64,000 nt of DNA from IMG/VR virus record IMGVR_UViG_3300011862_000001, positions 32,001 through 96,000 of that record. One strand, written 5' to 3'. The position numbers and the translations under genes are program-made. Source of the stretch: a virus. Taxonomy: Duplodnaviria; Caudoviricetes. The notes under the pieces were generated by a model. It saw only the letters and a list, made by a program, of their open reading frames with translations. It made no database searches and was not told where the DNA came from. The stretch's first letter is position 1; each line of letters starts with the position of its first letter. Shown in pieces: positions 19,552-41,372 of the stretch.

Positions 19552-20094
19552 ATGTTTATACTTCAAAAACACCACGACATTGTCACTAACCCGGCTTACC
19601 GTGATTGTACCGATGCCAAAGAATTCTTAGCACCGGTCAGTATCGCGCATCTCAATTACTTGAAAAAGCTGACGTACCTCGCGACGTTCGAAGACGGCAA
19701 ACCTGTCCACGTTCAGAAGCTGACTGCGGTTGAGAATACGGTGTATCTCTACGTCGATAAACTGACACCGAAGTTACTCAATGAACTGCGCATGGTGGTA
19801 CGTCCCGCAACACTTACCTATCCGGGGGCGTTCTTTGCGGTGTGTGAGCCGGAAGGACGTGACCCGTCGATGGAAGCAGTCACATTCGGTTTCACGGTGC
19901 CGCCAGAGCTGCGGTCTATCGAGAAACTGGCCCCGTTAATTGGTCACCCGAACGCGCAAATTATTCTCGAGGGGATAGCCTCGGTCACTAATCCGCAACA
20001 CGAATACGTGATGAACTGGAAGGGTGACGAAGAGATGGCGGAATACTTCCAACAACACGGTTTGAAATTCGTCAGTGCGTTTTACGCGCTGTAA
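19552..20094 (+). CDS. Hypothetical protein, paralog of 17951-18487
   Basis: 180 aa with GAGGA RBS; shares motifs with the 17951 gene. Confidence 0.75.
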   Translation: MFILQKHHDIVTNPAYRDCTDAKEFLAPVSIAHLNYLKKLTYLATFEDGKPVHVQKLTAVENTVYLYVDKLTPKLLNELRMVVRPATLTYPGAFFAVCEPEGRDPSMEAVTFGFTVPPELRSIEKLAPLIGHPNAQIILEGIASVTNPQHEYVMNWKGDEEMAEYFQQHGLKFVSAFYAL

Positions 20095-20100
20095 TAAATC

Positions 20101-20128
20101 GGGGAGCTTCGGCTCCCTGTTTTTTTTT
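20101..20128 (+). terminator. Intrinsic terminator
   Basis: GGGAGC-TTCG-GCTCCC followed by a T run. Confidence 0.8.
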
Positions 20129-20349
20129 GTTTCAACCCGCATCACTGCTCATTTTTTGACCACTTTCTGTACACATTTTAACCAGTGAAAATAAGCAGCC
20201 AAAACGCGCTTTACAGCGGTCGTAACCGAACCCGGTACACTTGGGTTCCTTTCCCTAAATAACGTCTCCTGGGTACCGCTGCGTTCGAATTTGACGGTGT
20301 CCCGACCCCGACTTGCGACCCCCTCGTCATCGACTGGCGACCGCCACGC

Positions 20350-20780
20350 CGATCAAACGTTGGGTACCGCTTCGCGGAACTGGGGATCTAAAACAGGGAA
20401 ATCTTGACAAACGAATCTTCGTGAGTTTGTCTGATTTGGTTGTTTTTTAACCAATAACCCCTAGCCAGCCTCCAGCTGGCTTAATTTACCCTTTTAAAAA
20501 TTTTCTTTTTAAAAAACAAAGACTTACAACCGATCTTACCCCTCCCCTCAGGGGGAGGGTAAAAAACTCTTCTATTAGTCGCGTGCGCGTGCGCACGCCA
20601 TTTCCTACAGGATCTTTTAAAAGAATTATATTATTATAATTATATATATCCCGTAGGGATATAATTATAAATATAAATATATATAACTCTTCGAGTTTAA
20701 ATATACTAACGCGCGTGATCCTTATTAAGAGATCGGATCTCGGATCGGCAGGTTGACCACCCCGATCGGGGGGGGGGGAA
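20350..20780. other. Candidate replication origin or other cis-acting region
   Basis: Non-coding; very AT-rich core at 20613-20710 with an inverted repeat; nine GATC sites, several palindromes and a G11 run. Confidence 0.35.
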
Positions 20781-20782
20781 GT

Positions 20783-20811
20783 CCAATTACAGGTTTACCC
20801 AGTAGTATGCT
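20783..20811 (+). promoter_or_regulatory. Class-2 promoter, duplicate of the promoter upstream of tRNA-Trp
   Basis: CCAATTACAGGTTTACCCAGTAGTATGCT matches 21951-21979 at 25 of 29 positions. Confidence 0.65.
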
Positions 20812-21070
20812 CGAAGGCACATGCACCACGTTGCCATCATCCAATCTCCCGGTTGACATCGGGCCGGGAGACTTTTTCGAGTCCGACTCACGCAGGGTGA
20901 GACGCGCTTACTGGCCAGTTGTGGTACAGGACCCGCAGTGCTGATCCCGCTGCGGGGATTTTTTCCCCAGGCGCTCATCCTGTTCAGGAATTGCTGTGTG
21001 TAGTTCGCCCCGTTCCTACCGGGGCGCTTTTTCGAGAGTCTTCCCCGAGGGTTGTCGACAAAGCGAAAAA
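20809..21070 (+). ncRNA. Putative structured non-coding RNA A
   Basis: Starts at the TATG of a class-2 promoter; no credible ORF; consecutive hairpins (CTCGAAGG/TTTTCGAG, TCTCCCGG/CCGGGAGA, CTCAC/GTGAG, CGCCCCG/CGGGGCG). Confidence 0.45.
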
Positions 21071-21109
21071 CCGTTCAGCCTAACACTCAACGTGATTTTG
21101 TTTTAGTAT

Positions 21110-21410
21110 GTCCAGAGATTCAGGTTCCCGCCGGGCTTTCACCCCGGTCGGTACCGCGGTAGCCTCAGGGGCGTTCTGCCCCGCCGGACCGTCATCCGTC
21201 GCCATGGCCATGAACTTACGCGTGGCCCACGTCGGTTGGATGCTCCTGAGGCGCGACCGAATTCGGCGTTGCGTCGAAACGTTCCCTGCGTGGAGACACC
21301 GCAGGGGTGGGATTGTCCCGAAGGGGGTGATTGGTTGTTTATCTTGGCGGCTCGGAAAGACGAGAGGGGGATGCCTGCACGCTGTGAAGCAGTTCGGGCA
21401 CCGCTGTCGA
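21110..21410 (+). ncRNA. Putative structured non-coding RNA B
   Basis: Starts at AGTATG (21105-21110); GC-rich; long-range pairing GGTCG..GCCTCAGG / CCTGAGGC..CGACC and a CCCTGCG/CGCAGGG hairpin; ends at the next promoter. Confidence 0.45.
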
Positions 21411-21412
21411 TA

Positions 21413-21439
21413 TTTTTTACAGATTCCCCAGTTCATGTG
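21413..21439 (+). promoter_or_regulatory. Class-2 promoter
   Basis: TTTTTTACAGATTCCCCAGTTCATGTG; same spacing as, and similar spacer to, 20783 and 21951. Confidence 0.6.
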
Positions 21440-21464
21440 TTCAAACCCAGCGAGGAATTTCAGC

Positions 21465-21965
21465 GTGACCACGATTGCATTCGACGGTAATACTCTGGCG
21501 GCGGACAGCCAGACAACCCAAGAGAACATTCGCCTCTCGAACTCTGCGGTAAAAATCTTCACCCGCGTCGCGCAGTCTGATGACTGGGCAATCGAGGGGA
21601 AACGCATCACCGCGTTTGGGGTGGCGGGTAACCTACACGCAGCCAACGATTTGCGCAGAGCGATGGAAACGTTTGCTGGCCACAAAGCCGGTGACCCGTT
21701 CGCCAAAGGCATCACCTTCGCGTTCATCGCGATTGCTGAAGACCGTACCGTGTTTGTTGGCGGGAAGTATTCTGACGATGACCGTTCGTGGGTCGTCGAA
21801 GCACAGGCACCGGTTGCTGTTGGTAGCGGTGGGGATTTCGCCATGGGTGCCATGGCCGCTGGGGCTACAGCCGAACAGGCTGTGGAGATTGCTGCTCGGT
21901 TCGATGTGAATACCGGCGGCCTTGTCCAGGCGATTAACCTCGCCAAAAGCCCAATTACAGATTAA
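21465..21965 (+). CDS. HslV/proteasome beta-type Ntn peptidase
   Basis: GTG start after GAGGA gives M-TTIAFDGNTLAADSQ...K-IF...VGSGG..AMGAM...AARFD..TGG, the N-terminal-Thr protease pattern. Confidence 0.85.
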   Translation: MTTIAFDGNTLAADSQTTQENIRLSNSAVKIFTRVAQSDDWAIEGKRITAFGVAGNLHAANDLRRAMETFAGHKAGDPFAKGITFAFIAIAEDRTVFVGGKYSDDDRSWVVEAQAPVAVGSGGDFAMGAMAAGATAEQAVEIAARFDVNTGGLVQAINLAKSPITD

Positions 21966-21979
21966 CCCAGTGCTATGCT
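21951..21979 (+). promoter_or_regulatory. Class-2 promoter of the tRNA cluster
   Basis: CCAATTAC-N15-TATG, about 37 nt upstream of tRNA-Trp. Confidence 0.65.
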
Positions 21980-22013: not shown

Positions 22014-22089
22014 AGGGAAGTAGCTCAGCAGGCAGAGCGCTGATCTCCAAAATCAGATGCCACAGGTTCGATTCCTGTCTTCCCTGCCA
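22014..22089 (+). tRNA. trnW: tRNA-Trp (CCA)
   Basis: 76-nt cloverleaf: AGGGAAG/CTTCCCT acceptor, CTGAT-CTCCAAA-ATCAG anticodon arm, GGTTCGATTCC T arm, encoded CCA. Confidence 0.95.
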
Positions 22090-39960: not shown

Positions 39961-41372
39961 TCGACATTTATTCTGCTATTCCTTATTGTTTGGTTTTTAC
40001 TGGTAATAAGGAATGGGCTATGGAGATTTGCAAACTAAGTAGGAAACTGCGTAGCGATCTGGAACCTTCGTATTTGTTTCGTGGGTTTTATCGCCACCCT
40101 GAGCTGCGTGATGTGTTTGCGAATGCTCTTGGTGTTTGTGTTTCAAAAAGAAAGGTCATCCCTTTACCAGTCACCTTCCTGAAAAGTGGCTACTATGGTA
40201 TACGTGGATGTCGTGGCCGAACTCATTTGCACACAGTTATCGCAGAAACATTCTTAGATAGATATAATGTAAAGGATGAGGTTAATCATCGCGATGGTGT
40301 AAAAACCAATCCCAGTGTGGTTAATCTTGAGTGGGTAAGTCGCTCTAAAAATGTCACACATGCTTTCGAAAACGGTCTACGTGATGAAAACATCGAAGTT
40401 GATGTCAGGAATCTGGAAACTGGTGAGGTGGTAGCATGTCGTAGCATTATCGAAGCGGCAAAGGTTGTCGGTATAAATCAACACACAGTTTCAAGTTATC
40501 TAATGCGCGGCCTTCACCGGCAGTATACGCTGAAGGATGTCTATGAAATTAAATTGAAGTGTGAGGATTGGATCTTGACAAAGAATTCGATTGGTAAGAA
40601 TTCTGGTCCCGGCAACAAAGGTGTGGTCGTTAGAAGGATGGGAACTTCACAATACTTCCTGTTCAGTTCAGCGCCCGCCGCAGGAGAATACATTGGTTTG
40701 AAACCACACCTTCTATACTCCCACCTTTCTGGTGGTACCGTTGATTTGAAAAATCACGGATATGAGGCGTGGTATATGGTTGACATCGACGTCCCTATTA
40801 CAGAGATGGTAGACCTGAGAAAACCTAGACCTGCACCCCTAGTCCCAAGACGTGTCGCTCCAATGGTTCGCGTTTACGATAAGTTAAACGAGACGACCAC
40901 AATTTACAACTCATTACAAGAGTTCTGTACGTTGATTGGTAAAAAGAAAGAAACGGTCGGTAAAGCCGTATCAATCAAGGGCGAATACAAACATTATGTC
41001 ATTGCGTACATCTGACAGAATAAATGAGGCCCACCGGGCGAGAAATCCCCGGTGCGTATCTCCTTGAATTGCTGGGAATCCCTAAAGCTCATTTGCCCAT
41101 GTGGAGACGAAAGTCTGAAACAAGTAATGAGATGACCTATGCTAACCAATACGGCTAAGGGTTGTAATAATGGGTTATCTAGCAGCGAAGACCCGAATGG
41201 GTAACGTTCAACGACTAGAGCTGAAATGCTCGTAGGTTCTTAGATTAGAGCCGAAGTGGGGAGAGACCTAAGGGTAGAAATACCTATGGTTAAGATATAG
41301 TCTGTGTCCCAGTGAGAGCTGGGAAGGGTACCTTAGCGTACCTGCTCCAAAGGGAATGGAGTGGACAAGCAG
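39961..41372 (+). mobile_element. Group I intron (1412 nt) carrying an HNH ORF in the P1 loop
   Basis: Exon ends in U and intron ends in G; elements P (AATTGCTGGGAA, 41067), Q (ATCTAGCAGC, 41177), R (GTTCAACGACTA, 41206) and S (AAGATATAGTCT, 41292). Removal restores NA|DFDGD in frame. Confidence 0.92.
40020..41015 (+). CDS. Intron-encoded HNH homing endonuclease with NUMOD1-like repeats
   Basis: HTVIAETF...EVNHRDGVKTNP...NLEWVSRSKN..HA; repeated S..EAA-like helices; AAGGA RBS. Confidence 0.88.
   Translation: MEICKLSRKLRSDLEPSYLFRGFYRHPELRDVFANALGVCVSKRKVIPLPVTFLKSGYYGIRGCRGRTHLHTVIAETFLDRYNVKDEVNHRDGVKTNPSVVNLEWVSRSKNVTHAFENGLRDENIEVDVRNLETGEVVACRSIIEAAKVVGINQHTVSSYLMRGLHRQYTLKDVYEIKLKCEDWILTKNSIGKNSGPGNKGVVVRRMGTSQYFLFSSAPAAGEYIGLKPHLLYSHLSGGTVDLKNHGYEAWYMVDIDVPITEMVDLRKPRPAPLVPRRVAPMVRVYDKLNETTTIYNSLQEFCTLIGKKKETVGKAVSIKGEYKHYVIAYI

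Follow-up and report, generated by a model that had tools for sequence, protein, structure and literature searches.

Sequence comparison points to a two-domain non-coding RNA gene of an undescribed family in one clade of jumbo phages

Few RNAs are large, ornately folded and supported by dozens of covarying base pairs, and those that are have in most cases proved to be machines or sensors. In this article, I describe what sequence comparison indicates is a further RNA of this kind, a plus-strand non-coding RNA gene of about 300 nucleotides (nt) with a two-domain fold, under strong purifying selection in a single jumbo-phage clade. It lies at about positions 21110-21410 of a 64,000-nt window of phage DNA (the window is the whole stretch that was analysed, bases 32001-96000 of a virus record, and all coordinates are positions in it), just before a gene for an HslV-like peptidase. 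The nearest described counterparts in general character are GOLLD and ROOL, large ornate RNAs of unknown function that have Rfam families of their own and that, like the RNA presented here, are orphan, elaborately folded, phage-borne molecules with many covarying helices, found beside tRNA genes and having no known partner or function. The stretch shares their tRNA-adjacent position in phage DNA, which is a likeness of context only and not of membership, and it differs from them in matching neither covariance model, in its size (about 300-450 nt across phages against roughly 580-800 nt) and in its hosts, since it occurs in lytic enterobacterial jumbo phages whereas GOLLD and ROOL are found mainly in Firmicutes prophages and environmental sequences.

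The tRNA region of phage T4 also encodes stable RNAs of unknown function (species 1 and 2, rnaD/rnaC), which are probably matured from longer transcripts; at about 120-140 nt they are smaller than the two-domain RNA here, with which they were compared by description only, and no Rfam model is known for them. The phage phiKZ is likewise a nucleus-forming jumbo phage with its own RNA polymerases, but of another lineage; a recent review of jumbo phages mentions only unspecified non-coding RNAs of phiKZ (PMC13282480, 2026). Finally, group I introns carrying homing-endonuclease genes resemble this RNA in their multi-helix build with a GNRA loop, and in two relatives, Kwan and Wellington, a gene of the HNH type sits in its peripheral hairpin P10. 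Unlike a group I intron, the RNA matches no intron model, has no flanking exons and shows no recognisable P7/G-binding core, and rather than two exons joined into one product it has about 1 kb without open reading frames (ORFs), ended by a terminator, upstream of it, and what lies downstream is another gene that has a start of its own.

A conserved and covarying fold

Using blastn, the stretch was found in 55-61 phage records, all of them jumbo phages of Erwinia, Salmonella, Escherichia or Proteus belonging to four genera (Seoulvirus, Machinavirus, Erskinevirus and Wellingtonvirus), and 18 annotated homologous loci were retrieved for comparison; pattern scans added a few uncultured contigs, namely a divergent one from IMG/VR (L020, UViG_3300011741) and three SPN3US-like ones from metagenomes. 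Over its full length the RNA shares about 78% of its bases with Caitlin and ChrisDB; identity in the core (21257-21390) is 75-80% as far out as SPN3US, and it reaches 96% over a 50-nt sub-core (21341-21390) in Huxley and Machina. The core is thus better conserved than the adjacent HslV-like protein, whose identity among the phages that keep the RNA is 37-82% and which shares 37% of its amino acids with that of SPN3US.

The 5' domain (helices P2, P3, P4, P6 and P7) was examined in a plain MAFFT alignment of 17 sequences that had not been fitted to any structure, and 93.1% of its paired cells can form a base pair, compared with 29-47% when the partners are slid by one to three columns; none of 500 shuffles reaches the observed value, and 15 of the 26 pairs show changes on both sides. 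For the 3' domain, 20 matches to a covariance model of P8-P12 (model R1), comprising 19 distinct sequences, were realigned, and here 90.4% of the cells pair (37-47% when slid), again with 0 of 500 shuffles as good and with both-sided changes in 20 of 33 pairs. This second alignment was fitted to R1 and so favours structure, though the comparison with slid partners holds all the same, as do the many double changes. Across both domains 125 of the 1,022 paired cells are G-U or U-G wobbles. In DNA, or read from the opposite strand, these would turn into A-C mismatches, so the functional RNA is that of the plus strand and a DNA cruciform is unlikely. RNAalifold, applied to a 16-sequence alignment of the whole RNA, likewise returned 52 pairs, 19 of them with compensatory changes.

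In outline, the 5' domain consists of the variable hairpin P2 followed by the long-range helices P3/P4, which enclose a junction carrying the GAACUUAC(C) apical loop, and in the 3' domain the hairpins P8-P12 are lined up about a near-invariant 28-nt tract, with a GNRA-capped hairpin at the domain's end (Table 1). Compensatory changes occur in six of the eight pairs of P4 (GCCUCAGG/CCUGAGGC), while the end pairs of P3 covary (UA in 12 sequences and CG in 4 at one end, CG in 9 and UA in 7 at the other) around two invariant G-C pairs; P9 appears in relatives as GUCUGCG/CGCAGAC, GCUUGUG/CGCAAGC, CCCAGCG/CGCUGGG and GUACACGG/CCGUGUAC; and the tetraloop of P12 (GUGA at 21384-87) is always of the GNRA type, varying among GUGA, GCGA, GAGA and GGGA. 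A closing helix P1 (UUCAG/CUGAA) is possible in most members, though in this phage it comes to only 3 bp, and its formation would compete with the lengthening of P12 by two pairs; it lacks covariation evidence because both partner strands are invariant. Two other pairings were considered and set aside: a helix proposed by RNAalifold that would join CCGC in P9 to GCGG in the invariant tract and that clashes with the covarying P9, and a three-strand switch at P10, in which CUCC would pair with either an upstream GGGG or a downstream GGAG, this region being better described as one long imperfect hairpin with GGUGAU(C) as its 3' strand.

The RNA also varies in size, the 5' domain being 217 nt long in SPN3US against 147 nt here, with much larger insertions in P2 among relatives, and the conserved fold as a whole covering about 320-370 nt in Seoulvirus and Erskinevirus. 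In Kwan (locus L013, 962-1471), and also in Wellington, an HNH gene (Pfam HNH_3) is inserted at P10 and splits the RNA gene, leaving its 5' half at about 620-880 and its 3' part at about 1480-1590 of the Kwan locus; in pEa_SNUABM_11, a sister phage of Kwan, the RNA is uninterrupted. Together with two reduced forms described below, the insertion shows where the RNA tolerates change. R1 finds a single copy in the window's own genome, and five less closely related jumbo phages (Xanthomonas RTH11, Proteus phage 10, RisingSun, Simmy50 and Moabite) gave no match to it in what was a fast first look that weak relatives may escape. No exact match to the invariant core or the 28-nt tract was found among 185,579 prokaryote species genomes, and six of nine metagenome matches to a 22-nt core were dismissed as chance, lying in unrelated and mostly G+C-rich sequence.

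No reading frame is conserved among the homologues. This phage alone has an open frame of 119 codons from the ATG at 21108, in phase with the HslV-like gene; its product has no Pfam match, and the homologues contain one to eight stops in nearly every frame, with no single frame open in all of them and, in pEa_SNUABM_29, with at least two stops in all six; the insertions and deletions that separate the homologues are not multiples of three. Coding sequences for 'hypothetical proteins' have been annotated over the RNA or over the hairpins upstream of it in ChrisDB (gp287), Asesino (gp288/289), Stratton (gp288), Huxley (gp278), phiEaH2 and pEa_SNUABM_43 (00280). They differ in frame, strand and place between phages and are probably artefacts of G+C-rich RNA sequence.

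Comparison with Rfam 15 (4227 models, among them GOLLD, ROOL, HEARO, OLE, raiA, RNase P, tmRNA, 6S, T-box, group I and II introns and the small ribozymes) gave no match in 21105-21410 at gathering thresholds or at E values up to 10, apart from a single noise-level row for ROSE_3 on the minus strand (17 bits where 43 are needed, E = 2.9), and six homologous loci were likewise without a match. The same runs recovered three tRNAs and the group I intron elsewhere in the window. ARAGORN and Rfam detected no tmRNA or tRNA-like structure at the RNA, and the T-box model had no match in it at E values up to 10. Literature searches found no description of the RNA either, and for both reasons I call the family undescribed. 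I base no claim on three short sequence likenesses: that of GGUACCGCG, which forms the P2/P3 junction, to the T-box sequence; ACGAGAGG, shared with the sarcin-ricin loop of 23S rRNA and probably a coincidence, a sarcin-ricin mimic being unlikely because its CGAG is predicted to lie within a stem; and GAACUUACC, found in relatives and close to GAACCUUACC of 16S rRNA, which is probably a coincidence as well. The two ribosomal likenesses concern 21342-21369 and 21212-21219.

The original prediction for this stretch, which had read it as a new multi-domain non-coding RNA, is borne out by covariation over about 59 pairs together with the G-U wobbles, the lack of a conserved frame and the lack of an Rfam family. 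It had called the stretch more G+C-rich than its flanks, and it is (0.62-0.635 for 21100-21399 against 0.50-0.59 in the flanking genes and 0.33-0.36 in an AT-rich tract at 20500-20799); it had judged the ORFs across it not to be protein-like and had seen no tmRNA, RNase P or intron motifs, and the stops in the homologues, the Rfam 15 covariance models and ARAGORN agree. Of its structural elements, CCCUGCG/CGCAGGG is real, having compensatory variants in relatives, and the further stems that it anticipated correspond to P8, P10 and the GNRA-capped P12, while only part of its long-range helix survives, the inner GCCUCAGG (21162-21169)/CCUGAGGC (21245-21252) being conserved and covarying and the outer GGUCG/CGACC being confined to this phage. 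Two of the checks that it proposed, an Rfam search and a look for covariation in related phage genomes, gave no family in the one case and covariation in both domains in the other. The ribozyme-like element that it offered as an alternative may still hold, but no known ribozyme model matches. Considering all of this, I regard it as very likely that the stretch is a real structured RNA of a family not yet described.

Table 1. Predicted parts of the RNA and neighbouring features in the window (pairing values refer to the alignments described in the text)
Feature	Position	Strand	Remarks
Whole structured non-coding RNA as proposed	21110-21410	+	From alignments and covariation; ends putative
Invariant UUCAGGU, 5' edge	21119-21125	+	17 of 17 sequences; UUCAG may pair with 3' CUG(AA) as P1, 3-6 bp, weak here
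P2 hairpin	21123-21155	+	GGU/ACC base, covarying stem, variable tip; 98% and 92% paired; double changes in 3 of the 4 stem pairs
P3 5' strand CGGU; P4 5' strand GCCUCAGG	21157-21160; 21162-21169	+	100% and 95.6% paired; double changes in 8 of the 12 pairs
P6 hairpin CGGA-CCGUCA-UCCG	21185-21198	+	Machinavirus-type members; A-U versus G-C in 5 sequences each
P7 hairpin	21206-21227	+	Apical loop with conserved GAACUUAC(C) at 21212-21219; nearly invariant outside Wellingtonvirus
P4 3' strand CCUGAGGC; P3 3' strand ACCG	21245-21252; 21256-21259	+	
P8 hairpin UCGGCG-UUG-CGUCGA	21263-21277	+	94% paired; double changes in 5 of the 6 pairs
P9 hairpin CCCUGCG/CGCAGGG	21284-21306	+	4 of 7 pairs change on both sides; loop motif GUAGAAC (GGAGACAC here)
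P10 imperfect hairpin	21311-21332	+	3' strand is the conserved GGUGAU(C); site of HNH-gene insertion in Kwan and Wellington
Near-invariant 28-nt tract UCUUGNCGGCUCGGRA(N)AGACGAGAGGGG	21342-21369	+	Contains P11
P11 hairpin CUCG-GAAAGA-CGAG	21351-21364	+	Never varies
P12 long hairpin	21370-21402	+	96.9% paired; double changes in 9 of the 12 pairs
Invariant GCUG, 3' edge	21403-21406	+	Possible P1 3' strand; A/U-rich tail after it
Terminator-like hairpin, tail CUUUUUCGAG	21006-21035	+	7 G-C pairs and T run; hairpin and tail conserved in all homologue groups
Upstream box	21081-21110	+	CTAACAC (21081-21087), then TAGTATG (21104-21110); invariant among close relatives; putative phage promoter
Promoter-like TTTACAG-N13-TGTG	21416-21439	+	Before the HslV-like gene; shape like a phiKZ middle promoter
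HslV-like (proteasome-type) peptidase gene	21465-21965	+	GTG start at 21465; homologues annotated 'peptidase HslV family'; outside the RNA
tRNA-Trp	22014-22089		Downstream of the HslV-like gene
tRNA-Cys	22600		
tRNA-Asn	24592		
Group I intron	40985-41324		Rfam RF00028, 57.9 bits, above gathering score

Putative limits of the transcription unit

The hairpin at 21006-21035 is predicted from its sequence to close a preceding RNA unit, and the box that comes after it has CTAACAC or GCAACAC in all five homologue groups, joined in three of them (this phage's own group, Seoulvirus and Erskinevirus) by T(A/T)(G/T)TATGTTC. In phiKZ the late promoter consensus is TATG, with the G as the start, and middle promoters have AAanTTACc near -24 (PMC4666361), and by this analogy a start of the RNA at G21110 is plausible. 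The TATG of Seoulvirus and Erskinevirus lies about 80 nt further upstream, which would lengthen their RNAs by about as much if it marks the start, and two extra hairpins with compensatory differences seen by eye follow directly after it, an arrangement that fits a start at the G. A sigma-70 reading of the upstream box was rejected, the spacing of TCGACA and TAACAC being 10, 17 and 20 nt in different phages.

On the downstream side the RNA abuts a putative promoter of the HslV-like gene, as had been predicted, in the form of the TTTACAG-N13-TGTG motif and the GTG start listed in Table 1. Motifs of this type also stand before tRNA-Trp (ending at 21977) and at 20809, and most members of the family have a separate promoter-like motif between the RNA and the next gene. 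Genome-wide, TTAC..N12-14..TRTG occurs at 15 sites when 10.2 are expected from shuffles and is not enriched, and for that reason the promoter assignments draw on conservation and on the phiKZ analogy only. The U run at 21413-18 belongs to this next promoter-like motif, and many homologues lack it. Two wastewater metagenome runs labelled 'RNA-Seq' contained only short, diverged contigs that are probably DNA and are uninformative on expression or ends.

Possible roles and competing explanations

I lean towards reading the stretch as a structured RNA of an undescribed family that stands alone and acts in trans, and on balance I consider this whole reading probable. The RNA would be transcribed within a tRNA and RNA island from its own promoter, with a terminator upstream and the CTAACAC...TAGTATG box after it, and would then be released as a discrete, stable molecule; the covarying helices would serve as scaffold only, and the work would be done at the invariant single-stranded tract and the loops, which most likely present a platform to which a protein of phage or host binds, giving a ribonucleoprotein (RNP), or else another RNA. 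A bolder version, which I think unlikely, is that of a new large functional RNA class of the SPN3US-like nucleus-forming jumbo phages, either a ribozyme or an RNA-only or RNP machine, in which the 28-nt tract and the GAACUUAC(C) loop would be the active or binding core for a phage-specific step such as the maturation or handling of stable RNAs or the neutralising of a host factor.

Several observations weigh against a discrete, trans-acting RNA. Its action in trans or as an RNP is pure conjecture on my part, and the folding energy of the single plus-strand sequence (minimum free energy -137.6 kcal/mol, z = -1.18) is equalled by 13 of 100 shuffles, which I take as uninformative and not as a negative, so the case for structure rests on covariation, although the single-sequence fold is itself long-range and close to the structure first proposed. 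The start is unsettled because the TATG motif is missing in Huxley-type, Wellingtonvirus and L020 members and TTTAGTATG is unique in the 237-kb genome; the start at AGTATG in the original prediction thus keeps its resemblance to the phiKZ late TATG, with G as +1, but its motif does not recur in the genome and is absent from two of the five homologue groups. There is no intrinsic terminator 3' of the RNA, the U run beginning 10 nt past P12, and in six phages that lack a downstream promoter an ORF with a ribosome-binding site follows 20-25 nt past the RNA, which makes it physically a 5' leader there unless it is processed. Part of the RNA is also dispensable, at least for propagation, judging by the reduced forms in pEa_SNUABM_6 (L011, about 1446-1480), which lost P4-P9 by a deletion between two GCCCC repeats, and in L020 (3609-3903, minus strand), which is without P8-P9 and keeps P2-P4 and P10-P12.

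The folded RNA might instead be a cis-acting 5' leader, the untranslated beginning of the downstream transcript (a gene called X, the HslV-like gene or tRNA-Trp), whose stability, processing, read-through or translation it would control, perhaps by sensing a ligand or protein; I hold this account to be unlikely. This phage, SPN3US and the Erskineviruses have the HslV-like gene next to the RNA. In SNUABM_4/_9, Huxley, SNUABM_10, SNUABM_29 and SPAsTU its place is taken by X, which encodes a protein of about 125 amino acids (aa), and in the Wellingtonviruses by a 235-245-aa relative of X, to whose C-terminal part the shorter X corresponds. The missing 3' terminator suits a leader, as do the GGAG and ATG found 20-25 nt past the last helix in those phages in which X follows directly, and the order RNA, gene X, small gene, HslV-like gene, tRNA-Trp looks ancestral, with X homologues in three genera. 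Yet the downstream gene is not constant, X being absent from the window and no Wellingtonvirus record being listed in a tblastn search with the HslV-like protein even though these phages keep the RNA; what stays constant at the locus is therefore the RNA, and a dedicated leader would not be expected to behave in this way. The separate promoter-like motif before the next gene in most members speaks in the same direction, the conserved fold nowhere overlaps the next gene's ribosome-binding site, and 300-450 nt is far above the size of known leaders of such a kind.

A ribozyme or self-processing RNA, with the invariant tract and loops as a catalytic core for, say, self-excision from the island transcript or action on tRNA precursors, would account for the compact multi-helix architecture, the invariant joining segments, the GNRA tetraloop and the strongly conserved unpaired nucleotides, and the homing-endonuclease gene in a peripheral hairpin of Kwan and Wellington is a common feature of group I introns. 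I find it improbable all the same, as no Rfam ribozyme or intron model matches at E values up to 10 when the same library found the true group I intron in the window, and there are no exons to join, only a non-coding side and a separate gene. Far less credit still is due to a DNA-level element (a replication origin, packaging site or cruciform array), for which one can cite the distance of about 400-500 bp to the most AT-rich and GATC-dense stretch (20500-20780) and the several records whose numbering begins at the locus; the 125 wobble cells would be A-C mismatches on the complementary strand, folding of the reverse strand is at the level of chance (z = 0.08), and a varying GNRA tetraloop, together with double changes that preserve helices while loops differ in length, marks an RNA and not protein-binding DNA repeats. 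As to protein coding, whether by lengthening the HslV-like gene at its N-terminal side from ATG 21108 onwards or by one of the small ORFs annotated in relatives, the open in-frame 119 codons and the GenBank entries of ChrisDB, Asesino, Stratton, Huxley and phiEaH2 are outweighed by the absence of a conserved frame, the indels out of step with codons, the shifting frame, strand and place of the annotations, the silence of Pfam and substitutions that are paired across helices, and I give this explanation next to no weight.

The value of the RNA lies in its being far better conserved than the neighbouring protein genes across four genera of giant phages. These phages rely on polymerases of their own for transcription, and one of them, SPN3US on Salmonella, is a genetically tractable model, so that the RNA offers a directly testable entry to the roles of non-coding RNAs when jumbo phages infect their hosts. 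It is also one more piece in the puzzle of the orphan RNAs that phages carry beside tRNA genes. The loci assembled here suffice for the seed alignment of a new RNA family, and several GenBank hypothetical proteins could probably be retired as artefacts.

Genome context and neighbouring elements

The source record is 236,909 bp long, with terminal repeats, and DNA and protein searches identify the genome as that of an SPN3US-like jumbo phage whose nearest relatives are Erwinia Machinaviruses (Caitlin, ChrisDB and pEa_SNUABM_4/8/9). The RNA locus falls within a 1.35-kb stretch without credible ORFs (20100-21464), bordered on the left by a 180-codon gene that ends at 20094. To the right, the HslV-like gene product has no Pfam match at E values up to 0.01. 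Many relatives have two small conserved genes between the RNA and the HslV-like gene that are missing from the window (L006 1856-2517, L014 1593-2209, L007 1680-2202 and L016 1619-2326), the first being X and the second encoding about 60-73 aa that start MTPEQ(R/E)(R/Q); neither X nor this smaller protein belongs to a Pfam family above threshold.

Upstream, the very AT-rich tract at 20500-20780 contains palindromes, GATC sites and a G11 run, and a block within it (20557-20685) is conserved out to SPN3US; the tract is a possible candidate for an origin or packaging element. Between this tract and the RNA, after a copy of the tRNA-Trp promoter-like motif that ends at 20809, there are three successive terminator-like hairpins (20845-80, 20932-66 and 21006-35, in the series 20783-21035), the first and third with the tail CUUUUUCGAG, and their layout is conserved upstream of the RNA in relatives; 20783-21035 probably holds more small RNA units.

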